A stretch of DNA of 64,000 nucleotides, from the NCBI GenBank assembly GCA_035644435.1, contig DASQOO010000115.1, positions 6,556-70,555 of the forward strand, read 5' to 3'. The position numbers were made by a program, and so were the translations under genes. Of this stretch, positions 4,510-47,975 are shown one piece after another; the stretch's first letter is position 1; every line of letters begins with the position of its first letter. Source of the DNA: Steroidobacteraceae bacterium (lineage in GTDB: Bacteria > Pseudomonadota > Gammaproteobacteria > Steroidobacterales > Steroidobacteraceae). The notes under the pieces were generated by a model. It searched no databases and was not told the DNA's origin. It was given only the letters and a program-made list of their open reading frames with translations.

Positions 4510-5441
4510 CGCGGAATCTCCACGCCGGAATATTTCTGCTCATACAGGAGCTGCGAGGGCTGGCGCTTGATGCTGCGCGAGAGATCGCGAAAATCCTCCG
4601 CGGCTTCGCGGCTCTCGCGAATCAGCTGCTGCAATTCGAGCAGGCCCTGGTCGCTGAAGCGAGTGATATTCGCCTGGTTATCGTTCACGAACTGATCGAG
4701 GCGCTCGGAAGTCGAGGCGAGATGATCCATGGTGACACGAGCCCGCTCCAATGCCGCCTTGATGTCGGGACCAGAGCCTTCGGTGATGTCGCGCAGGCCG
4801 TTCGCGGCGCCCTCGATTTCTCCGAGCGTGCGTTTCGTGTCGCCGACCAGCGCGTGGACGTCTTTCAGGATCCCGGGCAGCTCGCTGCTGGCGCGATTGA
4901 GGTTGTCGAGCGTGGCACCGACCGCCGCGACATTCTCATCATTGAACAGCTTGCTCATGCGCTGCGCCAGGTTCGCGCCCTGACCGAACAGGTCCGGAAG
5001 GCCGCTGAGGAGAATGTCGAAGTTCGACTTGACGGTGCGAATCACCGGGTAGCGCTGGCTGGCAACGCGCGGCATGACCGGCTTATCGCCACGATCGCGT
5101 TCCAGGTCGATATAGAGGAGTCCAGTCACGCCCTGCAGGCTCAGCGTCGCGAGCGTCTCGTCGGTAATCGGCGCTTGCGCATCGATGTCGACGACGACTT
5201 CGACCCGATCCGCCGCGCGCGGGTCGATGTCCATGCGCACCACGCGACCGACATCGACGCCGAGATAGCGCACCGGGCCGCCCTTGCTGAGCCCAGCGAC
5301 GCTGCCCTCAAAGTAGATCTCGAAGCGTTTGTAGTCGCGCTGGTCCTGGGTATCCGTGTACCAGATGACGAACCAGGTGCCGAGGGCGAGCACCAGCAGC
5401 ACGAAGGCGCCAACGGTGAGATAGCTGGCTTCACGTTCCAT
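4506..5441 (-). CDS. MCE/MlaD family substrate-binding protein
   Basis: N-terminal TM anchor (YLTVGAFVLLVLALGTWFVIW) followed by an MCE domain (VRYLGVDVGRV). Start chosen at MEREASY; the track ORF extends to 5486. Confidence 0.85.
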   Translation of the reverse strand: MEREASYLTVGAFVLLVLALGTWFVIWYTDTQDQRDYKRFEIYFEGSVAGLSKGGPVRYLGVDVGRVVRMDIDPRAADRVEVVVDIDAQAPITDETLATLSLQGVTGLLYIDLERDRGDKPVMPRVASQRYPVIRTVKSNFDILLSGLPDLFGQGANLAQRMSKLFNDENVAAVGATLDNLNRASSELPGILKDVHALVGDTKRTLGEIEGAANGLRDITEGSGPDIKAALERARVTMDHLASTSERLDQFVNDNQANITRFSDQGLLELQQLIRESREAAEDFRDLSRSIKRQPSQLLYEQKYSGVEIPR

Positions 5442-6210
5442 CGTCAGACTCGCGACTGTGCGCGGCAGAACGCGCGCGCGGTCCATGGAAGTACTCGTGT
5501 ATCCAGGGATGGTCGTTGCGCAGCATCCCGGGCACTGTATCGATCACCATGCGCCGGTCGACGATCACGCCGACGCGGTCACAGGTGGCGAAGATGGTGT
5601 CGAGGTCGTGCGTGATCATGACCACCGTGAGGCTGAGGTTCTTTTTCAGGCCGGCGATCAGCTGGTCGAATTCCGCCGCGCCGATCGGATCGAGACCCGA
5701 GGTCGGTTCGTCCAGGAACAGCAGCCGCGGATCGAGAGCCAGCGCGCGCGCCAGCGCAGCACGCTTGATCATACCGCCCGACAGCTGTGCCGGATACTTT
5801 GCCCCCGCATCCGCTGCCAGCCCCACCATGTGCAGCTTGAGGCGCGCCAGCGCATCCAACGCCTCGTCCTCCAGGTCGAAGAACTCCGTCATCGGCATCT
5901 GCACGTTCTGGGTGATATTCAGGGAGGTAAACAGGGCGCCGTGCTGGAAGGTGACTCCGTAGTGACGCTTGACCTCGCGCAGCTCGCTCTCGCTCAGGCT
6001 GTTGATGTCATGCCCGTACAGGACCACCCGCCCGGCGCGCGGGCGCTGCAGGCCGAGAATGGTGCGCAACAGGACCGACTTGCCACTGCCCGAACCGCCG
6101 ACGATGCCGAACACTTCGCCTTCCAGCACCTGCATGTCGAGCCCGGCGTGCACCACCTGTGCGCCAAAGCGGTTCACGATGCCGCTGACTTCGATCACCG
6201 GCTGACTCAT
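5431..6210 (-). CDS. ABC transporter ATP-binding protein (MlaF-like)
   Basis: Walker A GGSGSGKS, signature LSGGMIKR, Walker B LLFLDEPTSGLD. Start MSQPVIEV forms an ATGA overlap with the permease stop at 6207-6210. The track ORF (to 6474) is an upstream extension. Confidence 0.9.
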   Translation of the reverse strand: MSQPVIEVSGIVNRFGAQVVHAGLDMQVLEGEVFGIVGGSGSGKSVLLRTILGLQRPRAGRVVLYGHDINSLSESELREVKRHYGVTFQHGALFTSLNITQNVQMPMTEFFDLEDEALDALARLKLHMVGLAADAGAKYPAQLSGGMIKRAALARALALDPRLLFLDEPTSGLDPIGAAEFDQLIAGLKKNLSLTVVMITHDLDTIFATCDRVGVIVDRRMVIDTVPGMLRNDHPWIHEYFHGPRARSAAHSRESDDGT

Positions 6211-7322
6211 ATGTCGAGATGCCTGAAGAGCACGGCAAACACCGCGTCGGCGAAGATCACCAGGAATATGGACTGCACCACCGCCACCGTGGTCAGCCGC
6301 CCCAGCTCGCGCGAGGACTCGCGCACCTGCATGCCGCGCAGCGTGCCGACGAATGCGATCAGGAACGCGAAGATCGGCGCCTTGAAGATGCCCACCCAGA
6401 ATGTGGTCGGCGCAATGGATTCCTGCATGCGCGCGAGGTACTGCGCGGGCGGGATGTCGAACAGGAAATAGCACAGCAAGCCGCCGCCCATCAGGCCCAC
6501 GCCGTCGGCAATGATGGTCAGCAGCGGCAGCGCAATCACCAGGCCGAGCAGACGCGGTACCACCAGCACCTCGATTGGGCTGGTGCCGATCGCGTGCAGC
6601 GCATCGACTTCTTCATTGAGCTTCATGACACCGATTTCAGCGGCAAACGCGCTGCCGGATCGGCCGGCCACGATGATGGCCGTGAGCAGCACGCCGAGCT
6701 CACGCAGCACGCCGATCGTCACCAGGTCGACGACGAAGATCTCGGCGCCGAACCGCCGCAGCTCCTGGGCACCGAGGTAGGCGATGATGGTGCTGATCAG
6801 GAAGGCGATCAGCGACACGATCGGAATCGCCTGGACACCGGTCTCGTGTATGTGCCGTACCAGGGCCGGGAATCGCAACCGCCGTGGATGCAAGAGCGCG
6901 GAGCCGACGACGCTGCAGATCTCACCGAAGAAGACCAGCCCGCGGCGCGAGGACATGGCATGCCGGATTGCCCAGCGCCCGAGCCGACGCACCGGGGCCG
7001 CCAGGTCCAGCCCTTCCTCGTCGGGTGCTTGTTTGGGCGGATCACTGAGGGTGCGTTCCACGAACCGCACCTGTTCGGGCACTTGGCCCTGCCACTCCAC
7101 GCTGCGGCTTGCGGTGCGCAGGCGCTCGGCCCAATCGTGCAGGAACCAGGCACCAGTGAGATCGAGGTCTTCCAGCCGCTTGGTATCGATGCGTACGCCG
7201 CTCGCACCGCCGAGCTCGATGGCGCTGAGCTCCCGGCTGATCGCAGCCGCGTTCTCGATCAGCCAGCGCCCTGTGACTGAAACGGTCAGCACGCCGTCCC
7301 GATGTTGCTGGCTGAGAAACAT
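6207..7322 (-). CDS. MlaE-family ABC permease with N-terminal STAS-like domain
   Basis: C-terminal about 260 aa are a polytopic MlaE-like permease. The N-terminal about 100 aa (GVLTVSVTGRWLIENAAAISRELSAI...LDLTGAWFL) look like a STAS/anti-sigma-antagonist fold. Confidence 0.8.
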   Translation of the reverse strand: MFLSQQHRDGVLTVSVTGRWLIENAAAISRELSAIELGGASGVRIDTKRLEDLDLTGAWFLHDWAERLRTASRSVEWQGQVPEQVRFVERTLSDPPKQAPDEEGLDLAAPVRRLGRWAIRHAMSSRRGLVFFGEICSVVGSALLHPRRLRFPALVRHIHETGVQAIPIVSLIAFLISTIIAYLGAQELRRFGAEIFVVDLVTIGVLRELGVLLTAIIVAGRSGSAFAAEIGVMKLNEEVDALHAIGTSPIEVLVVPRLLGLVIALPLLTIIADGVGLMGGGLLCYFLFDIPPAQYLARMQESIAPTTFWVGIFKAPIFAFLIAFVGTLRGMQVRESSRELGRLTTVAVVQSIFLVIFADAVFAVLFRHLDI

Positions 7323-7409
7323 CGCCGGCGATGCTAACAGGCGCGCCGGTTGCCATCGAGCCTATAGCACCTTACTTTGCGGCGCAGGCCCACGCGCATC
7401 CTGCAATTG

Positions 7410-9386
7410 ATGTCACACAGCCCGCTGGTACAAGTCCTGGTACTCCTAGCCGCTGCGGTGCTGGTGGTCTATGCCGTTCGCCGCCTGAAGCTGTCGCCGA
7501 TCCTCGGCTATCTCGCGGTCGGCATGGTGCTCGGGCCCCATGCGCTCGGGCTGGCCGCAGACAATACGGCGATCAGCGTGCTGGCCGAAATCGGCGTCGT
7601 GTTCCTGGTGTTCACGCTCGGCCTGGAATTCTCGTTGCCGCGCCTGGTCGCCATGCGCTGGGAGGTGCTGGGCCTGGGCGGCGGACAAGTGCTGATCACG
7701 GCCGGCCTGGGCGGCGCGATCGCGTGGCACTTTGGCGTCGAACTGCCGGTCGCCATCGTGTTGGGCGGCGCGATCGCGATGTCATCGACCGCGATCATCG
7801 TGCGCCAGCTGAGCGAGCAGGCGGAGGTCAACCGCACGCACGGTCGGCTCGCGGTCGCAATCCTGCTGTTCCAGGACATCGCCTTCGTGCCGTTCCTCGC
7901 GCTCACTTCGGCGCGCATGACGCACGGTGAGGTGGCCGACGCCGGCGAATTCCTGCGCACGGTCACCGAGGGTGGCATCGCTTTGCTTATCGTGCTTGCA
8001 GCAGGCCGCTGGTTGCTGCGCCCGCTGTTCCATGAGATCGCCCACACGCGCTCCCCGGAGCTCTTCGTTCTCGCGGTGCTGCTCGTGGTGCTCGGTTCGG
8101 CCTGGACCACGCAAGTAGTAGGCCTGTCGCTCGCCCTCGGCGCCTTTCTCGCCGGCGTGATGCTCGCGGAAACCGAATTCCGGCACCAGGTCGAGGCAGT
8201 GATCCGGCCGTTTCGCGACGTGCTGCTGGGACTGTTCTTCATCACGATCGGCATGTTGTTCGACACCGGCCTGCTGGCGCGGCAATTGCTGCTGGTCAGC
8301 GGGCTGGTCATCGTGTTGGTCGTCGGCAAGACCCTGATCGTGATGCTGCTGGCGAAGCGCTTCGCCGGCAGCTTTTTCAAGGGGCTGCGCACCGGCATCG
8401 TGGTGAGTATCGGCGGCGAATTTGGATTCGCGCTGCTCACGATCCTGTTGCGTGACCGGCTGGTGGCGCCGGAGATCGTGCAACCCCTGCTGGCCGCCAT
8501 CGTGCTGAGCATGGTCGCGAGCCCGCTCATCATTCGCCACAACAAGCAGATCGCACGCTGGGTCCTGCGCGAGAGCGGTCCGGCGCCCACCGCGCTGGCA
8601 CGCGAGCTGGCGAGCACGCGCGCGCTGGCACAACGCGAGCACGTGCTGCTGTGCGGGTTTGGGCGCGTCGGCCAGAACATTGCACGGGTGCTCGAGGACC
8701 TGGGGTTCGAGTACATCGCGCTCGACAACGACCCGGGGCGGGTGCGGGCGGCGCGCCAGGCGGGCGACCCGGTCGTCTACGGAGATGCGGGCCAGGAAGA
8801 GGTGCTCGAGAACGTGGGACTGGATCGCGCCAGCGTCGTCGTGGTCAGCTTTGCCGATTCGACACTCGCGCTACGCATCCTGGCCGCGGTGCGCGCCCAG
8901 CGACCCGAAGTCCCCATCCTGGTGCGTACCCAGGACGACACGCGGCTGGTGGAGCTGCAGAAGGCGGGCGCTTCGACCGTCGTGCCCGAGACTTTCGAGG
9001 CCGCACTCATGCTCGTGTGGCACGTCCTGCTGCTGCTGGAGGTGCCGGTATCGCGCGTGATGAAGACCATCGGCGACATCCGCGGCAACCGCTACAACAT
9101 GATGCGCACGTTGTTTCGCCGCGATGATACCCAGCTGCCCGATGCCAGCGAGGCGCTGCGCGAGCAGCTTTACACCCTGGTGCTGCCGCCCGGCGCGTGG
9201 GCGGTCGGGCGCTCGGTCGACCAGGTGAAGGAACGCGCCGAGATCACCATCACTGCGATCCGCCGCGATGGCATCGTGGGGCGCGAGCCCTCGCCCGATA
9301 CGCTTCTCAAGGAAGGCGACGTACTGGTCCTCTACGGCACTCCTGAAGCCCTCGAACACGGCGAAGCCGTCCTGCTGATGGGCTGA
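7410..9386 (+). CDS. CPA2 family monovalent cation:proton antiporter with RCK (TrkA-N + TrkA-C) domains (KefB/YbaL-like)
   Basis: Na+/H+ exchanger membrane domain, Rossmann motif LLCGFGRVGQ, C-terminal TrkA-C-like segment. Start chosen at MSHSPLVQVL. Confidence 0.85.
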   Translation: MSHSPLVQVLVLLAAAVLVVYAVRRLKLSPILGYLAVGMVLGPHALGLAADNTAISVLAEIGVVFLVFTLGLEFSLPRLVAMRWEVLGLGGGQVLITAGLGGAIAWHFGVELPVAIVLGGAIAMSSTAIIVRQLSEQAEVNRTHGRLAVAILLFQDIAFVPFLALTSARMTHGEVADAGEFLRTVTEGGIALLIVLAAGRWLLRPLFHEIAHTRSPELFVLAVLLVVLGSAWTTQVVGLSLALGAFLAGVMLAETEFRHQVEAVIRPFRDVLLGLFFITIGMLFDTGLLARQLLLVSGLVIVLVVGKTLIVMLLAKRFAGSFFKGLRTGIVVSIGGEFGFALLTILLRDRLVAPEIVQPLLAAIVLSMVASPLIIRHNKQIARWVLRESGPAPTALARELASTRALAQREHVLLCGFGRVGQNIARVLEDLGFEYIALDNDPGRVRAARQAGDPVVYGDAGQEEVLENVGLDRASVVVVSFADSTLALRILAAVRAQRPEVPILVRTQDDTRLVELQKAGASTVVPETFEAALMLVWHVLLLLEVPVSRVMKTIGDIRGNRYNMMRTLFRRDDTQLPDASEALREQLYTLVLPPGAWAVGRSVDQVKERAEITITAIRRDGIVGREPSPDTLLKEGDVLVLYGTPEALEHGEAVLLMG

Positions 9387-9490
9387 CGCAAGCGGACATA
9401 ATCCGGGCCGCAGGGTGGCCAGAACAAGCCAAGCCCACATGGAGTTGCAGCTTCCTCTTTACTCCCGGCAACCCCCGTCGCATAGTCCGG

Positions 9491-9583
9491 CCGCTGATCA
9501 GGGCAAACCCACCGAAAGGTGGGGACGCAAAGCCACCGGTCTAAAGGATCTGAAGGGTCCTACGATAGCGGGGTTGCCAGCGG
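9491..9583 (+). promoter_or_regulatory. c-di-GMP-I (GEMM-I) riboswitch aptamer
   Basis: P1 helix ccgctg/cagcgg. CAGGGCAAACC, then hairpin cccacc-GAAA-ggtggg, GACGCAAAGCC, UCUAAAGG-hairpin-CCUACGAUAGCGGGGUUGCC. Block-for-block match to the remembered Vc2 aptamer core. Same strand as, and 153 nt upstream of, the next CDS. Confidence 0.9.
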
Positions 9584-9736
9584 GCAGCGGCCCCCTCTCA
9601 CTACCGCGGCTCGATCTGACTTCCCCTCCTTCGTGACCTGCTCGCGCGCTCGAACTCACTGGCGCGCTCGAGTCATGGCCCGCGCCACCCGGCCAGCAAC
9701 GCTTTTTGCGGATCGCGAACCGACCGGGGGAAACAA

Positions 9737-11089
9737 ATGGCAGCCAGAGTTGCAGTCCTGCGCAATTGGGAAGGCAGCGTGGTCACACGACCACGGGTCA
9801 TCGTTCGTCCGAAGCGCGTCGAAGACATCCAGACCATCCTCGAAAACAGCAAGGCCTTTCCTTCACCGGTGCGCGCCATCGGCGCCAACTATTCGCAGAC
9901 GCGCTGCGCAGTCGCGGACGGCGGCACCATCGTCGAAACGGCGGCGATGAACCGCATTCTCGAGATCACCGATCGCTACATCCGCGTACAGGCTGGCGCC
10001 GCGCTGATCGATGTCGCCATTGCGCTCGAGCAACAGGGACTGCAGCTCCCCGTGAACCCGGATCTCGGCAACCTTACGATGGGTGCGGCTGCACTCGCGC
10101 CCACCAAGGACTCATCGATGCCGGGTGAGATCGGGCAACTCTCCTCCGCGCTCAAGGAGGCAAAGCTGGTGCTGCCGAACGGCAAGAGCGTCACGATCAA
10201 CGAGTCACAGGCGGACTTGCTGAAGCTGGTGCGCTCCAGTTACGGCCTGACCGGCATCGCGCATGAACTGACTTTCCGCGTTGTTCCGTTACGCGCGGTG
10301 CGCCTCGACTACGAGAGCTACTCGCTCGAAGCATTCACCCGGGAATTCCCGGCCCTGAGTGAAATGGGAGCGGGTCTGAAGTTCTACCTGCTGCCGTTTC
10401 GCGATCGCGTGACGGTCGAATTCCGCACCTACGACGACGAGCCGCCTACGTCGCGTTCGGGCATCTGGTCGATCCGCAATTCCGTGATGACCAACGTGCT
10501 CCCCGCTTTCGGCTCGACCGTCAGCAACGCCGTGCCCTTTCCCCCGGTACGCTACTTCTTCATTGAACACTTCAACAGCGTGATGCGCTCGACGCTGGAC
10601 CGTGCCGCGCGCAATGTCACCGTGTATCCGATCGAGTGGGTGCGCAAACTCCCGAAGGATGCCGGCAGGACTCGCTTCACCTACAGCACCTGGGCGTTTC
10701 CGCAGCAGGGTTATCCCGAGCTGATCGCGGACTACTTCGAGTTCTGCCGCGACTACTACAAGCGGCAGCGCTATCGCGCCAACCTGCTGCACCTGGGCCA
10801 CCGCCTGCACCGCGACCCGGGCTCGCTCCTCAGCCCGAGTTTCGCGGCGCCGATGGTCACGCTCGATCCATCGTCCACCGGCGATGCTGGCTGGGAGGAC
10901 TTCGTCATCGAGTTCAACGAATTCTGCTCGCAGCGCCAGGGCACACCGCTCCTCAACCAGACCCGCTCGCTCACCAAGGAACAGACCTGCCAGGCGTTCG
11001 GCGAACGCTGGAAGGTCTTCAACGGGTTCCGCAAGCGGCTCGATCCCGAGGATCGGATGCTCAACGTGTACTTCGCGCAGCTCCTCTAG
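9737..11089 (+). CDS. FAD-binding (PCMH/VAO-type) oxidoreductase, DprE1 / D-arabinono-1,4-lactone-oxidase-like
   Basis: N-terminal FAD_binding_4-like region (WEGSVVTRPRVIVRPKRVEDIQTIL...VRAIGANYS...RVQAGAALIDV...SYGLTGIAHELTFRVVP). C-terminal ..RKRLDPEDRMLNVYFAQLL resembles the ALO/DprE1 C-terminus. SD GGGGGA lies 5 nt before the ATG. Confidence 0.75.
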   Translation: MAARVAVLRNWEGSVVTRPRVIVRPKRVEDIQTILENSKAFPSPVRAIGANYSQTRCAVADGGTIVETAAMNRILEITDRYIRVQAGAALIDVAIALEQQGLQLPVNPDLGNLTMGAAALAPTKDSSMPGEIGQLSSALKEAKLVLPNGKSVTINESQADLLKLVRSSYGLTGIAHELTFRVVPLRAVRLDYESYSLEAFTREFPALSEMGAGLKFYLLPFRDRVTVEFRTYDDEPPTSRSGIWSIRNSVMTNVLPAFGSTVSNAVPFPPVRYFFIEHFNSVMRSTLDRAARNVTVYPIEWVRKLPKDAGRTRFTYSTWAFPQQGYPELIADYFEFCRDYYKRQRYRANLLHLGHRLHRDPGSLLSPSFAAPMVTLDPSSTGDAGWEDFVIEFNEFCSQRQGTPLLNQTRSLTKEQTCQAFGERWKVFNGFRKRLDPEDRMLNVYFAQLL

Positions 11090-11110
11090 CGCCGCGCAGG
11101 CCTGCAGCGC

Positions 11111-11593
11111 TCAGGTGCTCGCCTGCAGGTGCGCCTCGACGAACCAGAGGTACTTGTCGACATCGCGCGAAACGCCGGTGAACAGATCCGTGGTGTCGTC
11201 ATCCCCGAGCTTGTCCGACTCGGAGATCGCCTTGCGCACCTTGCGACCGAAGACGGCCAGCGCAGTCGCCAGAGCATCGACGTGTGCCGAGCCATCGATG
11301 ATGTCGGTCGGATAAGGATCGAGTGAGGTGCGCTTGGCCACCGTCGCCAGCGCACCCTCCGCCGTTCCACCCAGCGAGGTGATGCGCTCGGCAATCGTGT
11401 CGATGTGCTCCTCGATGTTCTCGGCGACCTCGTCGAAGAGCTTGTGGAGCGCGATGAAGTTCGGGCCCTTCACGTTCCAGTGCGCCTGCTTCGCCTGCGT
11501 CTGCAGGTCGATCGCGTCGGCGAGCCGCGCGTTGAGCAGGTCGGCGACCCGGCGACGGGTTTTCTCGGACAGGTCGATACGGGTCTTGTGCAT
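11111..11593 (-). CDS. dps: DNA starvation/stationary-phase protection protein Dps
   Basis: Dps/ferritin-like motifs QAKQAHWNVKGPNFIALHKLFDE and HIDTIAERI; typical length of 160 aa. Confidence 0.9.
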   Translation of the reverse strand: MHKTRIDLSEKTRRRVADLLNARLADAIDLQTQAKQAHWNVKGPNFIALHKLFDEVAENIEEHIDTIAERITSLGGTAEGALATVAKRTSLDPYPTDIIDGSAHVDALATALAVFGRKVRKAISESDKLGDDDTTDLFTGVSRDVDKYLWFVEAHLQAST

Positions 11594-11692
11594 GTCAGAC
11601 TCCTTGAGGTACGGCAGCTATTTTCCACGGCCGCGAGGTTCGTTCCCAATTGTTGCTGTCGATCGGGTCGATCGAGGCCGAAAATCGCCGAT

Positions 11693-12679
11693 TCAATGTT
11701 GCCGGCGGATTCCGAAGTAGAAGGCGACATCCGGGGAGCCGCCAACCCGCACATCCTCCGTCACCGCCAGCTCAAAACGCCAGCCGCCTGCGGTCCGATA
11801 ATGGCCGCCGATTGTTAAGAGGACTGCAGCACCCAGGAAGTCGAGGTCGCTGTCCTTGACGCAGCTGTCATGCGCATCGACCTGCATGGCGAGCCCGTAG
11901 CGGGTCCCCGCGTCCCAGCTCAATGCGACCGTGCCGAACGGAATCACGCTGCTGGCCTCGAGCGGCAATGGATCGACAGAACCGGGCCTGGACATTCCCA
12001 GCGTCGCATCGAGGCGCCAGTCTCGGCCCAATTGCCACTGCCCGCTGATCCAGCCGGCCACGTCGACGGCACCGTTGCTGGTCAGGGCGTGGGTTTCGCC
12101 GGTCGGCAGCTCCAGTCCGAGCCAGACATCGATGGTGGTCGCAGCGGTCGACAGGGCCGTGAAGCCCGCCTCGATCGATGAATCCGCGATGCCGGTATGG
12201 CTGCCGGTGATGTCGATCGCTGCGCCGCTCGCGCCCTGTCCGGCAAGGTAGGCGAACTCGAGCTCGTTCTCCGGTCGCAGCGGACGATCGCCCCGCGGTA
12301 AGCCGAGTAAGCGGTGCCAGTCGTCGATGACCGAATCCAGGTGGCCGCCGCTGTAGTGCACGACGGGGATCGAGAACTGCAGCTGCCATCGCCTGGCGAC
12401 TCGCCAGGAGCCATTCCACCGCAGCTCGGTGCTCTCACCATCGACGAGCAGCTCCTCACCGTTGCGCGATTCGATATTGGTAGTGTTGCTGATAGTCAGT
12501 GCGAGGTCCTGTCGCCATGAAGCATCGGACGGCAGCACCGGTCGGCCGAGCGGCAGGTAGACACCGCGAATCAGCGGATTCTGATCGCGCACCAGGAACG
12601 GCTCCGCTTGTACTGTCGGACCCGCCACGCAGAGCGCCAGGCAGGTGCAGGCCCAAAGGCCGGGTTCGCGATGGATCAC
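11693..12679 (-). CDS. DUF3187-like putative outer-membrane beta-barrel protein
   Basis: Signal peptide ending VQA. EPFLVRDQNPLIRGVYLP N-terminus typical of DUF3187. Alternating beta-strand pattern, aromatic C-terminus. GTG start. Confidence 0.6.
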   Translation of the reverse strand: MIHREPGLWACTCLALCVAGPTVQAEPFLVRDQNPLIRGVYLPLGRPVLPSDASWRQDLALTISNTTNIESRNGEELLVDGESTELRWNGSWRVARRWQLQFSIPVVHYSGGHLDSVIDDWHRLLGLPRGDRPLRPENELEFAYLAGQGASGAAIDITGSHTGIADSSIEAGFTALSTAATTIDVWLGLELPTGETHALTSNGAVDVAGWISGQWQLGRDWRLDATLGMSRPGSVDPLPLEASSVIPFGTVALSWDAGTRYGLAMQVDAHDSCVKDSDLDFLGAAVLLTIGGHYRTAGGWRFELAVTEDVRVGGSPDVAFYFGIRRQH

Positions 12680-12701
12680 CCGGTCGCAGTTTACTGGCGC
12701 A

Positions 12702-12732
12702 CAAAAAAAGCAGCCAAGCTTTCGCTTGGCTG
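12702..12732 (-). terminator. Rho-independent terminator after the ytrA-like ABC operon
   Basis: On the minus strand: cagccaagc-GAAA-gcttggctg (perfect 9-bp stem) followed directly by a 7-T run. Preceded by a second hairpin gcaggtcc(N13)ggacctgc at 12741-12769. Confidence 0.8.
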
Positions 12733-12800
12733 AGAAGTACGCAGGTCCCAGGGGATTTTGCGGACCTGCAGTGATTGGTCGGTGTGCTGAGCGATGCGGT

Positions 12801-13700
12801 TCACGTCTCGCTGCGGCGCCGCCGCAGCAGGATGGCGGCCCAGATGAATCCGGCTGCCACGATGAGCCCGATCCACAGACCGGGGCTGGAGAAGAACGTG
12901 CCGGGGTCGATAGAGTCGATGAGACGCCCTGTCATCGGGATGCGACTACCATCGACGTCAGCGGCGCGCTCGGCAGCATTGGTATTGAGTGCGAGGTGGA
13001 ACCAGCCGCCGAACCGATCACGAAGCATGTGTGCAACATGGAACGTCTGGAGAAAACCGTACTCCAGGAGCATGAGTGCCAGAATCGGCAACACAGCCCA
13101 GAGAATCACAGCACGGCGCGCCCAAGCGGAAACCAACAGCAGCCAGCCGAGAATCGGCAAGTACCACAAAGTCATTGTTGCCATCGAATAGAGAATCAGT
13201 GCGTGTGCGGCAAACCAGAGGCGTGGCTCCCAGACCATCGACCAGACATGCTCCACCGTACCGCTCAATCGCAGACTACCGATGAGACCAAACAGTAGGT
13301 TAGTGGCCAGTACCGCCCCGAAAGTCATCAGTGGAAGTGCGACAGCTGCGACTACAAGCTTCGAAATCACGGTCTCTCGATCCGAGACCGGCAACGACTT
13401 CCAGAACAGCACGCTGCGATCCTTGCGATCGGCGTACAGGCTGTCGAGAAGGTAGAAGAGGGTAAGAAAGCCCATCGAGATCAGGTATGGCACCGCAACG
13501 CCTGTGAGCAGGAGCGTAAGGATGGCGTAGCGCTTGCTCTCAAATTCAGGATTCCCTACCAAATCGAGTGAAGCGTGACGGAACTGTGGATGGCCAAACG
13601 TAATGATTAGAATCAGGATGGCAGCAACGACGGCCGGCGCGATGAAGAACGAGCGGTGCTCCCAGAACTCGCGGCGTATCAGCAGCGGGAGGTGGTTCAT
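12801..13700 (-). CDS. ABC-2 type transporter permease
   Basis: Six or more TM helices. ATGA overlap with the upstream ATPase gene. No other recognisable motif. Confidence 0.7.
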   Translation of the reverse strand: MNHLPLLIRREFWEHRSFFIAPAVVAAILILIITFGHPQFRHASLDLVGNPEFESKRYAILTLLLTGVAVPYLISMGFLTLFYLLDSLYADRKDRSVLFWKSLPVSDRETVISKLVVAAVALPLMTFGAVLATNLLFGLIGSLRLSGTVEHVWSMVWEPRLWFAAHALILYSMATMTLWYLPILGWLLLVSAWARRAVILWAVLPILALMLLEYGFLQTFHVAHMLRDRFGGWFHLALNTNAAERAADVDGSRIPMTGRLIDSIDPGTFFSSPGLWIGLIVAAGFIWAAILLRRRRSET

Positions 13701-14554
13701 GCGGCGGCTCCCTTGATCTTGGCGACGAACAGGTCCGCCACGCTCGGGGTGCGGGCGTCGCCCAGCTTGTGCAGCGCGTCGGCGGCGGCATTCTGAAAGA
13801 ACATCACCGTGCGTCCGAACACCTCGCGTTCGTAGAACGGCTTGAATTCGCGGGCCGCGGCGACGTGATCGGGGTTGACCGTGAGCTGCACGAAGCTCTC
13901 GGCAACCTGCTCCATGGTGCTGTCGAGCACGATGCGGCCGCGGTCGATGAACAGCACGTCGGTGAGGAGGTTCTCCACCTCTTCGACCTGGTGAGTGGTG
14001 ATGACAATCGTGCGCTCGTGGTCGAAATAGTCGGACAGCAGGCTCTCGTAGAACTGCTTGCGATAGATGATGTCGAGGCCGATTGTCGGCTCATCGAGCA
14101 CCAGCAGCTTCGCATCGATCGCCATCACCAGCGCCAGGTGCAGCTGCGTGATCATGCCCTTCGACAATTCACGCACGCGGCTGGTGCGCTTGATGTTGGT
14201 GCGGCCGAGAAACTGTTCGGCAAGCTCTGGCCGGAAGCGCGGATGCACGCCGGCGACGAAATCCACTGCCTGCTGCACGCGCAGCCAGCCCGGGAGAACC
14301 GCGACATCGGCGATGAAGCAGACTTCCTGCATCAGCCGGTCGCGCTGGGTATAGGGGTCGAGGTCGAGCACTTTGAGCTCGCCTTCGTAGTTGGTGAGCC
14401 CGAGGATCGCGCGCAGCGCAGTGGTCTTGCCGGCGCCGTTGGGGCCAATCAAGCCCACGATGCGTCCAGCCGCGGCACTGAAGCTCACGTTGTCCAGCGC
14501 GTGGAACTTGCCAAATGACTTGCTCAGTCCACGCGCTTCAATCACTGCGCCCAT
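13697..14554 (-). CDS. ABC transporter ATP-binding protein
   Basis: Walker A GPNGAGKTT, signature LSKGMITQ, Walker B LLVLDEPTIGLD. Start chosen at MGAVIEARGL; the track ORF extends to 14677. Confidence 0.9.
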   Translation of the reverse strand: MGAVIEARGLSKSFGKFHALDNVSFSAAAGRIVGLIGPNGAGKTTALRAILGLTNYEGELKVLDLDPYTQRDRLMQEVCFIADVAVLPGWLRVQQAVDFVAGVHPRFRPELAEQFLGRTNIKRTSRVRELSKGMITQLHLALVMAIDAKLLVLDEPTIGLDIIYRKQFYESLLSDYFDHERTIVITTHQVEEVENLLTDVLFIDRGRIVLDSTMEQVAESFVQLTVNPDHVAAAREFKPFYEREVFGRTVMFFQNAAADALHKLGDARTPSVADLFVAKIKGAAA

Positions 14555-14975
14555 CGGCGACCTCGCTCGATCCGGATTTGTTGCCGTCGCTGTCGGTGCC
14601 ACTCTTGGCGGCTTTGAGCAGGTCGGCGGCGCTGAGCCCAAGGCGGTTGATTGTTGCCAAGACCTTCGGCCACTCATCTTCCAGGAACTTCTGCCGTTCG
14701 TCCTTCATCAGGATCCGGCGCGCGCCTTCGGTAACGAACATGCCCCGACCGCGCCGCTTCTCGACCAGTTGCTCGTCGACCAGCTGCTGGTAGCCCTTGA
14801 GGACCGTCAGCGGATTGAGCTGGTATTCGGCCGCTACGTTGCGCACCGAAGGCAGCGCATCGCCGTCCTTCAGCACACCCTCGAGGATCATCGCGACCAC
14901 GCGATCCCGGAGCTGCCGATAGATCGGCTGACCGTCATTCCAGTTCGGATCCATGCTGCTGCCTTCAGCGTTCAC
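14538..14975 (-). CDS. GntR family (YtrA subfamily) transcriptional regulator
   Basis: Winged-HTH PIYRQLRDRVVAMILEGVLKDGDALPSVRNVAAEYQLNPLTVLKGYQQL with a short C-terminal tail. The start may be the internal MDPNW at 14954. Confidence 0.85.
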   Translation of the reverse strand: MNAEGSSMDPNWNDGQPIYRQLRDRVVAMILEGVLKDGDALPSVRNVAAEYQLNPLTVLKGYQQLVDEQLVEKRRGRGMFVTEGARRILMKDERQKFLEDEWPKVLATINRLGLSAADLLKAAKSGTDSDGNKSGSSEVADGRSD

Positions 14976-14995
14976 TGTGCTGGGCGATTAGCGAA

Positions 14996-15337
14996 CTACT
15001 GTACCAGAACGGCCCGCGGCGACCGGTTGCGTGCCGGCGACTCACCGCTGCTGTTGTTGTGCGTGTCGCGCTCCGCGAAGGTGGAAACGCGCGGCGCTGT
15101 CACCGTCATGCTTCCCAGCTGCGCGATTTCGCGCACTCGCTTCGCCTCGACAACCATCGAGCCTGCGTCGGCAAGCCGGATCATCGGAGCCGTCACTTCG
15201 AGCTGACCCATGAACGCCACCGTCGTGGCCGGGCTCGCGCATCCCTCACCTGCCCAGGCACCAGCTGCCATGAGTGAGAAGAGGCCAACTGTCGCCAACT
15301 GCACCGTGCCCGTTGCTTTGCGATTCTTCGTGAACAT
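14996..15337 (-). CDS. Small secreted hypothetical protein (first gene of the ytrA-like operon)
   Basis: Strong SD AGGAGG 8 nt upstream of the ATG. Signal peptide (LFSLMAAGAWA). Two xxVTAPxx repeats (LEVTAPMIR, MTVTAPRVS). Confidence 0.6.
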   Translation of the reverse strand: MFTKNRKATGTVQLATVGLFSLMAAGAWAGEGCASPATTVAFMGQLEVTAPMIRLADAGSMVVEAKRVREIAQLGSMTVTAPRVSTFAERDTHNNSSGESPARNRSPRAVLVQ

Positions 15338-44877: not shown

Positions 44878-47154
44878 TCAAGCCCGAACCGCCAGCTTCA
44901 CCAGTTCCGGTGCGATAGGCAGGCGCCTCACGCGAATGCCACGGGCCGCAAAGATAGCGTTCGCCAGTGCCGGAGCAATCGGCGGCAGTGGACATTCACC
45001 CATGCCCACCGGATCACGCTGGCTCGGCACGATGTGAACCTCGACCTCGGCCGGCGCCTCGGCCATGCGCAGCAACGGGTAGTCGTTGAAATTGCTCTGC
45101 TCGACGCGTCCGTCGCGGATCGTGATCTGCGGATGCAGCGCGTGGGACAGGCCATCGATGACACCGCTCTGCATCTGCGCTTCGACGCCCAGCGGGTTGA
45201 CCGCGCGACCGCAATCGACGGCGCCCGTAACCTTGAGCACGCGTACGCCGCCGCGTTCGTCGACTTCCGCCTCGACGACCTGCGCGACGTAGCCACCAAA
45301 CGTGAAGTGACCCGCGATGCCGCGACCGCGCCCGGGCGGCAGCGGCCTGCCCCATCCGCCTTTCTCGGCGGCGAGCCTTAGCACCGCGGCGAGTCGACCG
45401 GTGTCAAAGATTGGTCCGCCGTGATCGCTGTACTTGAGCTCACGACCAGCGCCCAGTAGCGCAAGGCGCAACTCGAGCGGGTCGCGCTTGAGGCCGCTGG
45501 CGATTTCATCCAGGAACGACTGCACCACGAACGCGTTGGCGGTGTGTGCGGGCGCCCGCCACGAACCGCGGGCGGCACCCGAGCGCATCGAGTGATATTC
45601 GAGCCGGTAGTTCGGCACCAGCGCGGCGGGGAAATCGTCCGCATAGAGCTCGGACGTCCAATCGTCCTCGGGCTTGACGTCTTCGCGGCGATAGTACTTG
45701 GAGGCACTGGCGAGCCGGTGAGTCCAGCTTACGAGCTTGCCCTGCGCATCGAATCCGGCACGCAGCTCGTGCAGCCCGGTCGGACGATAGAAGTCGTTGC
45801 GCAGATCGTCTTCGCGCGTCCACAGCACCTGCACCGGTGCCTGGACCGACTTGGACACCAGCACCGCTTCGGCCACGTAGTCCGCGCTCAGCCGGCGACC
45901 AAAGCCGCCGCCGAGACGCGTCATGCGCACATCGATGTTCAGCCGGTCGAGACCGGTGAGGCGCGCCGCCATGCGCGAAGCGTTACCCGGCATCTGTATC
46001 GGAGCAATGATTTCGCAGCGATCCGCCCGCACCCAGGCCACGCAGTTCTGCGGTTCCAGCGTGCAGTGGCTCACGTACGGCAACCAGTAGCGCGCCTCGA
46101 ACGTCCGGGCAGCCGCGGCGTGTGCCGTGTCGAAGTCGCCATCGTTACGGACCACCTTGCCTTTCCTGGCCAACGCCCGCGCGCACTGCTGTTCGAAGGC
46201 GGTGGTGTTCTCGTCGGCAAAAGGACCCGGCTTCCACTTGATCTTGAGACGCTCGCGTCCCTGCATCGCCGCCCAGGTCGAGTCGGCCACTACCGCGATC
46301 GCCGAGGCCAGCACCGTGTAGGGCTTGGTCCCCGGTTCGGCATCCACGCGCACGACGTGGCGCACGCCGGGTACCTTCATCGCCTCGCTCGCGTCGTAGC
46401 TTTCGATCCCGCCGTCGAACGACGGGCAGCGCGCCAGCACTGCATGCAGGAGGCCCGGCAGGCGCGCATCGATGCCAAAGCCGGCGCTTCCGGTCACGAT
46501 ATCGCGGCCGTCGAGCAGGCGGGTTGGTGTACCGATGATGCGATAGGTTGCGGGATCCTTGAGCTTCGGTTCGGCATGCGGCGCCTTGAGCAGGGCCGCA
46601 GCGGCTGCAAGTTCGCCGTAGCTCGCGGCGCGACCTGAAGAGCGATGAACGACGCGACTCGGTTCGGTGGCACACGCAGCCGGATCGACGTGCCAGCGTT
46701 CGGCGGCGGCCAGGATCAGCATTTCGCGGGCGCGCGCACCAACCTGCCGCAGCAGCACCCAGTTCTCACTGACGCTGGTGCTGCCGCCAGCGCCCTGGCT
46801 CACGCCATCGTACTTCCAGGTGTAACCCTCGCCCTTGGGATTGCGCATGATCCCGAGCGGCATCTGCTCGACGCGCACGCTGCGCCAATCGACGTCGAGC
46901 TCCTCGGCGATCAGCATCGGGAGCGAGGTGCGCACGCCCTGTCCCATGTCGGGATTCGGTGTGCCCAGCGTCACGGTGCCGTCCGGATCGATGCGCACGA
47001 AATAGCCGAGTTGGCCGCCGGAGGTCGCTGCCCGGCCCGAATCCTCGGCTGCGCCGAGACCAATCAGCAGTCCGCCGCCCACGGCGACCGAGACACACAG
47101 GAAATCGCGCCGGCTCAGCGTCGGCGAGGCATTCGCCAATGCCGTGCGCTGCAT
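44878..47154 (-). CDS. Tat-exported molybdopterin-binding oxidoreductase subunit (IorB / aldehyde-oxidase beta-subunit family)
   Basis: Start MQRTALANASPTLSRRDFLCVSVAVGGGLLIG carries a twin-arginine signal. Length (758 aa) and sequence resemble isoquinoline 1-oxidoreductase beta subunits. The 990-aa track ORF is an artefactual 5' extension running through the LytTR gene. Confidence 0.8.
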   Translation of the reverse strand: MQRTALANASPTLSRRDFLCVSVAVGGGLLIGLGAAEDSGRAATSGGQLGYFVRIDPDGTVTLGTPNPDMGQGVRTSLPMLIAEELDVDWRSVRVEQMPLGIMRNPKGEGYTWKYDGVSQGAGGSTSVSENWVLLRQVGARAREMLILAAAERWHVDPAACATEPSRVVHRSSGRAASYGELAAAAALLKAPHAEPKLKDPATYRIIGTPTRLLDGRDIVTGSAGFGIDARLPGLLHAVLARCPSFDGGIESYDASEAMKVPGVRHVVRVDAEPGTKPYTVLASAIAVVADSTWAAMQGRERLKIKWKPGPFADENTTAFEQQCARALARKGKVVRNDGDFDTAHAAAARTFEARYWLPYVSHCTLEPQNCVAWVRADRCEIIAPIQMPGNASRMAARLTGLDRLNIDVRMTRLGGGFGRRLSADYVAEAVLVSKSVQAPVQVLWTREDDLRNDFYRPTGLHELRAGFDAQGKLVSWTHRLASASKYYRREDVKPEDDWTSELYADDFPAALVPNYRLEYHSMRSGAARGSWRAPAHTANAFVVQSFLDEIASGLKRDPLELRLALLGAGRELKYSDHGGPIFDTGRLAAVLRLAAEKGGWGRPLPPGRGRGIAGHFTFGGYVAQVVEAEVDERGGVRVLKVTGAVDCGRAVNPLGVEAQMQSGVIDGLSHALHPQITIRDGRVEQSNFNDYPLLRMAEAPAEVEVHIVPSQRDPVGMGECPLPPIAPALANAIFAARGIRVRRLPIAPELVKLAVRA

Positions 47155-47159
47155 CTGCG

Positions 47160-47975
47160 TTACAGCCGTCCGCTGTTGATGTAGTTCACGACGCGGCGCC
47201 GATAGGCGCGGCCCGAGGTGAACTTCGAGCCGTTGGCGAGCGTCACCTCGTAGTCGCCGTAGAGCTGGCGCGCCATCTCGCGGATGTGACGTGTGTTGAT
47301 GATCACGGAGCGGTGAATGCGCAGGAACATGGTCGGATCGAGCATCGACTCGGCCTGCTGCATGCCGCAGCGGAGCAGGTAGTGATCGCTCCCCACGTGC
47401 AGCGTGATGTAGTTGCGACTCGCCTCGACCGCATGCACGTCGCCTGGGTCGACGAAGATGTAGCGGTCGTTCTTCTCCGCCACGATGCGTTTCGGCCCGG
47501 TGCCCGGAATTGTGCCCTGCATGCTGCCGAGGATCTGGCGGACGGCAGCCTGGACCTGCGCGCGTACATCGTTGCCCGCGGGACTCGAGAGGCGCGAGCG
47601 GGCGCGCTCCACCGCAGCATGAAAACGCTCGCGATCGAAGGGCTTGAGCAGGTAATCGACCGCGTTGAGCTCGAAGGCATCCACCGCGTATTGATCGTAG
47701 GCGGTGACGAAGATCACCAGCGGCATCGCGTCGCGCCCGATCTTCTCGATGACCTCGAGGCCATTCACGCGCCGCATCTGCACGTCGAGGAACACCAGCT
47801 CCGGGTGCAGCGCCGCGATGCGCTTGACCGCTTCGGCGCCGTAGCGACATTCGCCGATGACTTCGAGGTCGCCTTCCATGGCGCAGTAATCCTTGAGTGT
47901 CTGGCGCGCGATCGGCTCATCGTCCACGATCAGCGTGCGAATCTTGGTCGCAGTGCTCACTGCCGCAGTGTTCAT
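47160..47975 (-). CDS. LytTR/AlgR family two-component response regulator
   Basis: REC domain (LIVDDEP, LVFLDVQM, KP) plus a C-terminal LytTR DNA-binding domain (FLRIHRSVIIN). Confidence 0.9.
   Translation of the reverse strand: MNTAAVSTATKIRTLIVDDEPIARQTLKDYCAMEGDLEVIGECRYGAEAVKRIAALHPELVFLDVQMRRVNGLEVIEKIGRDAMPLVIFVTAYDQYAVDAFELNAVDYLLKPFDRERFHAAVERARSRLSSPAGNDVRAQVQAAVRQILGSMQGTIPGTGPKRIVAEKNDRYIFVDPGDVHAVEASRNYITLHVGSDHYLLRCGMQQAESMLDPTMFLRIHRSVIINTRHIREMARQLYGDYEVTLANGSKFTSGRAYRRRVVNYINSGRL

Follow-up and report, generated by a model that had tools for sequence, protein, structure and literature searches.

A c-di-GMP-I (GEMM-I) aptamer coupled to an uncharacterized VAO-type flavoenzyme gene across the Steroidobacteraceae

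Within a 64,000-nucleotide (nt) stretch of DNA from a Steroidobacteraceae bacterium (contig DASQOO010000115.1), here called the window, an aptamer of the cyclic di-GMP-I class (c-di-GMP-I, or GEMM-I) lies upstream of, and on the same strand as, a gene for a 450-aa flavin adenine dinucleotide (FAD) oxidoreductase of the VAO/PCMH type. The match to the aptamer family goes far beyond chance, and the coupling of aptamer and gene recurs in all 79 homologous loci in which it could be looked for. From its sequence, the window RNA appears to be a genuine, canonical, textbook-type c-di-GMP-I riboswitch. We favor a model in which this aptamer, transcribed from its own promoter, controls translation of the FAD enzyme through occlusion of the Shine-Dalgarno (SD) sequence, and we put the probability of the model as a whole at about 0.78; its promoter, its SD occlusion, its sign of regulation, and anything said on the substrate of the enzyme are the parts that we infer, while the identity, position, and clade-wide conservation of the aptamer and the fold class of the protein are shown.

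Identity and conservation of the aptamer

A cmscan search of the full 64-kb window against Rfam 15 returned RF01051 (c-di-GMP-I) at 9492-9581 on the forward strand, with 83.7 bits against a gathering score of 35, an E-value of 5e-15, and a match that spans model positions 1-87 of 87. No other Rfam family reached its gathering score anywhere in the 64 kb, and a covariance model of our own, built from homologous loci, scored the window aptamer at 107.8 bits. The initial annotation, made from the letters without database searches, had read a GEMM-I element into 9491-9583, within a 350-nt gap and 153 nt upstream of a 450-aa open reading frame (ORF) on the same strand. The sequence that it quoted is present as written, its coordinates were confirmed, and the Rfam score upholds the identity that it proposed. 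The gap spans 9387-9736, between an upstream ORF (7377-9386) and the ATG at 9737, and the distance from aptamer to ATG is 153 nt when counted from the end of the extended P1 helix (9583) or 155 nt when counted from the end of the Rfam match (9581).

The published hallmarks of GEMM RNAs are a first hairpin with 2-bp and 6-bp stems, a GNRA tetraloop, an AAA linker, and a second hairpin with a receptor-like region (PMC1950547). Every feature of the RF01051 aptamer that can be read from a sequence is found in the window RNA (Table 1); its alignment to the RF01051 consensus places a GACGC/AAA junction before the second hairpin, which contains a CUAAA region and a short distal stem. It resembles Vc2, the GEMM-I RNA of Vibrio cholerae, in having two hairpins, a GAAA tetraloop, a CUAAA-type receptor region, and an AAA linker, and it resembles the GEMM-I class at large in lying in cis within the 5' untranslated region, on the same strand as the gene.

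Homologues of the flavoprotein come almost entirely from Steroidobacteraceae or from unclassified gammaproteobacterial metagenome-assembled genomes, and their identity to the window protein ranges from 93% down to about 43%. Loci for comparison were taken from a scan in which one genome represented each GTDB species, and the best 80 of 167 loci (L001-L080) were analyzed. Rfam gave a match to the GEMM-I clan in each of the first 17 loci (17/17), on the forward strand and 150-240 nt before the homologue. Searching with our own covariance model gave exactly one aptamer for the window and for each of 79 of the 80 loci, on the forward strand and directly upstream of the homologue. The sole miss, L039, has just 58 nt of upstream DNA, so that the association stands at 79 of 79 testable loci, whose proteins are 93% to 44% identical to that of the window; the matches in L051 and L066 are cut by contig ends.

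The fold is conserved together with the position. Standard pairing occurs in 96.8% of the cells of an 80-sequence alignment, and sliding the 3' partners by 1-3 columns lowers pairing to 30%-51%. Compensatory double changes were found in five pairs, against 1.8 in shuffled alignments, and none of 500 shuffles reached the observed value. All these figures lean toward the structure in that the alignment was fitted to the covariance model. As in the published family, the compensatory changes fall within the tetraloop and distal hairpins, and the covariation check that the initial annotation had proposed for homologous loci therefore supports the fold. A chance match, or a decaying relic without a regulatory role, is scarcely credible in the face of the E-value, the compensatory stem changes, the conservation of the flanking promoter and SD elements, and the retention of the aptamer in 79/79 testable loci despite divergence of the protein to 44% identity.

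We also observed that the 3' strand of P1 is tandemly duplicated at 9577-9590 (CAGCGG G CAGCGG CC). If the second copy paired with GGCCGCUG at 9489-9496, P1 would be shifted in register, and the unconstrained minimum free energy (MFE) structure contains this shifted helix. The duplication is kept in L002-L005 and is absent from L001 and L006-L012.

In the crystal structures of Vc2, A47 intercalates. G20 and C92 are the nucleotides that recognize the guanines of c-di-GMP (G20 for G-alpha and C92 for G-beta), while an A20 marks readers of c-GAMP (PMC6140456). None of the homologues departs from G20, A47, or C92. Membership in the c-GAMP class (GEMM-Ib), which is characterized by A20, was rejected, as position 20 is a G in every homologue. 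The window shares with the c-di-GMP-I-GGC family (RF03167) a clan, CL00126, and four of its homologous loci, L013-L016, score best as RF03167 (62-64 bits against a gathering score of 59); these belong to a larger, more distant clade whose proteins are about 45%-48% identical to that of the window. Unlike RF03167, the window scores as RF01051, and the homologues that score as RF03167 carry A47: at this position the RF03167 consensus GACGCGAA has G, whereas L013 GACGCAAA has A. Since A47 is present in the homologues, the hallmark of RF03167 is absent and the assignment amounts to a near-tie between clan members; RF03167 membership was ruled out for the window and its homologues alike. We note that automated annotation would mislabel L013-L016 (for example L013:3763-3858) and most of L018-L080 as the RF03167 variant.

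The majority clade is distinguished by the changes G50 to A and U90 to C, whereas the window keeps the canonical G and U. As read at alignment columns 47/125 and 48/124, an A.C mismatch at the P2 pair beside the ligand pocket (A49-U90 in Vc2) occurs, coupled with the G50-to-A change, in 54 of 79 aptamers and is absent from that of the window. It is a possibility that this second-shell change tunes or alters the ligand response in most homologues. The mismatch and the RF03167 scores of L013-L016 are the points in favor of a specificity variant whose ligand would be 3'3'-cGAMP or some other, unknown molecule. We regard such a variant as very unlikely, given the RF01051 score and canonical P2 nucleotides of the window, the A47 that L013 carries in place of the RF03167 G, and the invariance of G20 where c-GAMP readers have A20.

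The flavoenzyme and its His-bearing sister clade

The protein encoded downstream of the aptamer, whose translation contains VRAIGANYSQT, matches PF01565 (FAD_binding_4) over residues 19-154 with 66.6 bits (cutoff 26.4) and the C-terminal part of PF04030 (ALO) with 29.2 bits (cutoff 23.1). A profile search of the PDB ranked plant and ancestral L-galactono-1,4-lactone dehydrogenase (GLDH) first, with 8qnr as the best match (E 3e-28) in an alignment limited to the FAD domain (residues 6-228); xylitol/alditol oxidase came next, followed by DprE1 at about 1e-7. An AlphaFold2 model (pLDDT 82.5, pTM 0.83) was compared using Foldseek, which gave TM-scores on the query of 0.77 for GLDH, 0.72-0.74 for alditol oxidase (AldO), and about 0.70 for DprE1, at identities of 15%-18%. 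These neighbors agree with the initial annotation, which had described a PCMH/VAO-type flavoprotein of ALO/DprE1-like character, and the modeled fold assigns the protein to the aldonolactone-oxidoreductase/alditol-oxidase/DprE1 structural group.

With aldonolactone oxidoreductases and alditol oxidase the window protein shares the FAD_binding_4 and ALO-type C-terminal domains. It differs from GLDH and AldO in its low identity, in a sequence alignment confined to the FAD domain, and in falling below the cutoffs of the NCBIfam models, of which none was reached (TIGR01679, 111 bits against 292.25; TIGR01678, 74.2 against 396.8). With DprE1 it shares the fold, whereas the DprE1 equivalog NF053785 gives only 34.7 bits against a cutoff of 500, the window gene is unfused, no short-chain dehydrogenase (SDR) partner is found among its neighbors, and SDR fusions occur only in distant relatives. 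To our knowledge, the arabinan pathway is not expected in a gammaproteobacterial host.

At the position of the flavinylation His (G-x-x-H-S motif), the window protein has Tyr52, within GANYS. The alignment places a Leu there in GLDH, and the window protein resembles plant GLDH in lacking this His. GLDH binds FAD non-covalently. Sugar 1,4-lactone oxidases and alditol oxidase, in contrast, possess the His that carries covalent 8-alpha-N-histidyl FAD. The replacement of the usual GGGHS motif by AIGANYS, to which the initial annotation had drawn attention, is thus real, and Tyr occupies the position of the His in 79 of 79 riboswitch-linked loci. No signal peptide was seen at the N terminus of the translation. 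It is probable from these sequence features that the flavoprotein is cytoplasmic and holds FAD non-covalently. Close to its C terminus the protein has a P..NQT(R) motif specific to the family; when the last 111 aa were searched against PDB sequences to align P..NQT with the HWxK of aldonolactone oxidases, no usable match was returned.

An exhaustive HMMER search over 1.84 billion cluster representatives returned only 141 clusters at E <= 1e-30. Some full-length relatives at 34%-40% identity carry fusions: an N-terminal SDR domain (P0123, P0129, and P0138), a GMC oxidoreductase (P0156 and P0179), or an MpaB/Lcp-like oxygenase domain (P0131), and P0122 is a tandem duplication. By analogy, the SDR fusion recalls the epimerization pair of DprE1 oxidase and DprE2 reductase, which may be a hint on the chemistry of these relatives and not on that of the window gene.

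A sister clade of 80 metagenome loci (L081-L160) was retrieved using a 7-sequence alignment. The flavinylation position is His (GSxHS) in 80 of 80 of these loci. Upstream of the sister genes, our own model found a GEMM-I aptamer in none of the 80 loci at E <= 1, and Rfam found none at the gathering score in 20 loci. Since the riboswitch is present in the Tyr clade only and absent from the His clade, riboswitch and His-to-Tyr change coincide on one branch. The neighborhoods of the sister clade are heterogeneous, and some of its loci adjoin genes for haem-peroxidase-like proteins and GMC oxidoreductases. It is conceivable that c-di-GMP directly gates a Tyr-variant, probably non-covalent, dehydrogenase-type offshoot of His-flavinylated oxidases, that this offshoot carries out a DprE1-like alcohol-to-ketone oxidation of a sugar, polyol, or lipid-linked substrate for the switch between sessile and motile life, and that riboswitch and His-to-Tyr change arose together. 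Taken as a whole, this proposal is distinctly improbable. A role in making an envelope or exopolysaccharide precursor, which the initial annotation had raised as speculation, is likewise speculative.

Putative promoter and control of translation

Alignment of the 75 nt upstream of every aptamer revealed a block composed of cTTTACa/t, 17 nt, CATAGT, 5-7 nt, and the invariant P1 GCUG, which is kept in nearly all of 78 loci. Because this block is conserved just upstream of the aptamer, it indicates a sigma70-like promoter that would serve the riboswitch mRNA independently of read-through from the upstream KefC-like gene, with transcription predicted to start at approximately 9492-9494, the first nucleotides of the aptamer. 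The initial annotation had considered the case in which the only transcription start of the oxidoreductase lies downstream of 9583; the conserved putative promoter upstream of the aptamer points the other way. On the opposite side of the gene, a ferritin/Dps-like gene is convergent with it and lies 21 nt beyond it, so that the flavoenzyme gene is monocistronic.

Leaders are 110-159 nt long in the window clade, and that of the window measures 150 nt. A generic promoter and terminator scan of 9300-11300 found neither promoters nor intrinsic terminators. A G-rich SD precedes the ATG in all loci (CUUCCGGGGGGAAG in the majority clade), and an equivalent of the C-rich box, a candidate anti-SD, is found in essentially all 77 modeled leaders (GUGCCCCCCGACAGC in the majority clade). 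In L006 both sides are changed, with the SD GGGAGGA accompanied by the box CCCUCC. In partition-function folding of the 77 leaders, box and SD pair with a mean probability of 0.64 when the consensus fold is imposed on the aptamer (locked) and of 0.37 when it is not (free); in the latter case, the box is often paired with the aptamer rather than with the SD. In 21 sequences the SD is more open with a free aptamer, and in 3 with a locked one. Overall SD accessibility shifts only slightly (0.30 free and 0.23 locked) and was replaced by partner-specific pairing probabilities; single-sequence MFE structures were heterogeneous and were not used as evidence. In the majority clade, a GGUUUUGYG element is fused to the C-rich box. 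Its complementarity to the aptamer core CGCAAAACC covers at least 8 bp in 43 of 65 leaders, and counting the adjacent GGGG:CCCC extends it to as many as 14 bp; the mean in shuffled leaders is 6.4 bp. Once the aptamer has folded, this anti-aptamer strand can be sequestered in a local AAACC...GGUUUU hairpin.

In the favored model, a canonical c-di-GMP-I riboswitch would form the 5' end of a monocistronic flavoenzyme mRNA that starts at its own sigma70-type promoter. c-di-GMP would be read through G20, A47, and C92, and its binding would lock P1 and the aptamer core. Locking would switch the partner of the C-rich box and thereby set access to the SD, placing control at translation initiation. Without ligand, the anti-aptamer strand and the C-rich box would be tied up in the aptamer and the SD would be free; with c-di-GMP, the aptamer would be locked, the box released, and the SD occluded, which describes an OFF switch. 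From the folding models, translational control by SD occlusion appears to be the most likely mechanism, and repression by c-di-GMP seems roughly twice as likely as activation for the family.

Several observations weigh against this model, chiefly for the window itself. The window promoter matches just 8 of 12 consensus positions, which is under the threshold of the generic scan. Pairing between box and SD is predicted in both states of the window leader (0.90 locked and 0.88 free), and the anti-aptamer strand of the window clade does not rise above chance (7 bp, equaled in 118 of 200 shuffles). Since box pairing is unchanged and an anti-aptamer strand is lacking, the route from aptamer to SD is unexplained for the window sequence, and the OFF switch is not demonstrated for the window's own leader. 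Moreover, the fold of the whole leader does not exceed shuffled sequences in stability (z = 0.17), and neither co-transcriptional kinetics nor tertiary structure enters into thermodynamic folding. The sole candidate for a switching helix in the window leader is a hairpin at 9581-9613: nucleotides 9581-9583, which end the extended P1, are also part of its 5' strand. Pairs of this hairpin alternate between G.U, G-C, and A-U in L001-L010, which, with just 11 sequences in the alignment, points only weakly to such a role.

It is possible, though appreciably less probable than the OFF design, that the same riboswitch is a translational ON switch, in which c-di-GMP frees the SD and induces the flavoenzyme. 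The overlap of the 9581-9613 hairpin with the 3' end of the extended P1 would permit a ligand-stabilized P1 to remodel the leader, and an SD that is predicted to be occluded in the free state of the window (0.88) suits a default-off, ligand-on design. Precedent is available as well, since a terminator-type GEMM has been proposed to act as an ON switch (PMC1950547), and GEMM-I representatives of both signs are known (PMC9262584). What counts against an ON switch is the family: in the 77 leaders locking raises box pairing, the SD is open in the free state more often than in the locked one, and the majority-clade layout of aptamer core, GGUUUUGYG fused to the C-rich box, and SD is most simply read as OFF. 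Control could instead act on transcription elongation or mRNA stability, through Rho-dependent termination or RNase access, with 9589-9632 as a rut-like site. Riboswitches coupled to Rho and to RNase E are known in Proteobacteria. The long leader with a C-rich, G-poor segment at 9589-9632, the failure to find an intrinsic terminator, and a window clade without a clear anti-aptamer strand would all accommodate this route. However, a rut site does not need the complementarity to the SD that the C-rich box shows in nearly every leader, nor the joint change of box and SD in L006, and we consider control of this kind unlikely. Translational control by SD occlusion, acting as an OFF switch, is therefore the reading that we retain for the family.

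Gene neighborhood and significance

The gene order around the locus (window 5431-15337) is kept across the family Steroidobacteraceae (Table 1), and this synteny argues for orthology of the loci. The ORF upstream of the aptamer encodes a KefC-like protein with Na+/H+ exchanger and TrkA-N/C domains. KefC and Dps are stress-protection genes, but each stands in its own transcription unit. No pathway could be inferred from the conserved gene order in the 81 sources, because the flavoenzyme gene forms a separate transcription unit.

Table 1. Features of the riboswitch locus and its conserved neighborhood (window positions)
Feature	Position	Strand	Basis or remark
Putative -35 hexamer TTTACT	9458..9463	+	conserved block cTTTACa/t; putative, from sequence
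Putative -10 hexamer CATAGT	9481..9486	+	CATAGT (few CATATT) conserved; putative, from sequence
c-di-GMP-I (GEMM-I) aptamer	9492..9581	+	RF01051 match, homologue pairing, invariant ligand-contact nucleotides
P1	GCUG 9493-9496 with CAGC 9578-9581	+	extendable to 6 bp CCGCUG/CAGCGG, 9491-9583
Vc2-equivalent ligand contacts	G20 = G9502, A47 = A9529, C92 = C9577	+	alignment to RF01051
GAAA tetraloop	9514-9517	+	caps first hairpin (2-bp plus 6-bp stems)
Hairpin right after aptamer (CGGGC.GCG ... CGC.GCUCG)	9581..9613	+	RNAalifold consensus, window clade
C-rich box ACUUCCCCUCC, candidate anti-SD	9619..9629	+	partition-function folding, RNAalifold consensus
G-rich SD GGGGGAAA	9726..9733	+	read from sequence; ends 3 nt before ATG
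450-aa VAO/PCMH-type FAD oxidoreductase gene	9737..11089	+	Pfam, PDB profile search, AlphaFold2, Foldseek; between KefC-like and Dps-like genes in the conserved neighborhood
MlaE, MlaD, auxiliary lipoprotein genes		-	conserved neighborhood
KefC-like K+ efflux gene	7377..9386	+	in 73/81 sources
Dps-like ferritin gene	11111..11593	-	in 59/81 sources
DUF3187 gene	after Dps-like gene		conserved neighborhood
ABC-2 permease and ATPase genes	after DUF3187 gene		in 66-67/81 sources

The remainder of the window is ordinary chromosome with 65% GC and housekeeping and catabolic genes, and neither a tRNA nor a further Rfam family was found in the rest of the 64 kb. A large molybdopterin aldehyde-oxidase/IorB-like ORF lies on the reverse strand at 44878-47100, a region that gene picking based on GC3 had left as a gap, and an internal start of this ORF carries a twin-arginine signal (RRDFL). 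A LytTR-type response regulator gene comes next (47160-47975, reverse strand), and nothing here is unusual.

GEMM RNAs control a wide range of genes, most of them related to the environment, the membrane, and motility (PMC1950547). The usual GEMM-I targets serve motility, pili, adhesion, chitin use, competence, or c-di-GMP turnover by diguanylate cyclases and phosphodiesterases, whereas the window cargo is a lone cytoplasmic flavin oxidoreductase. The initial annotation had considered such a cargo unusual, and this agrees with the literature: in what is searchable, which is incomplete, we found no paper that links GEMM-I to a VAO-type flavoenzyme target or to a Steroidobacteraceae host. The riboswitch class itself is known and is annotated automatically by standard pipelines; what is new is a flavoenzyme target that is consistent throughout a clade.

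To a specialist, another GEMM-I RNA would not be surprising, while its coupling in 79 of 79 loci to an orphan enzyme with a His-to-Tyr change is a good experimental lead. In a widespread family of soil bacteria, every genome that could be tested has the aptamer joined to this uncharacterized flavoenzyme, and the coupling coincides exactly with the loss of the flavinylation His; together these give a way to test what the orphan VAO subfamily does. Moreover, the compact leader of the majority clade, with its aptamer core, anti-aptamer strand, anti-SD, and SD, would be well suited to serve as a natural model for translational switching by c-di-GMP. Finally, the association suggests that c-di-GMP signaling in this family reaches a redox or metabolic step beyond its motility, adhesion, and matrix targets.

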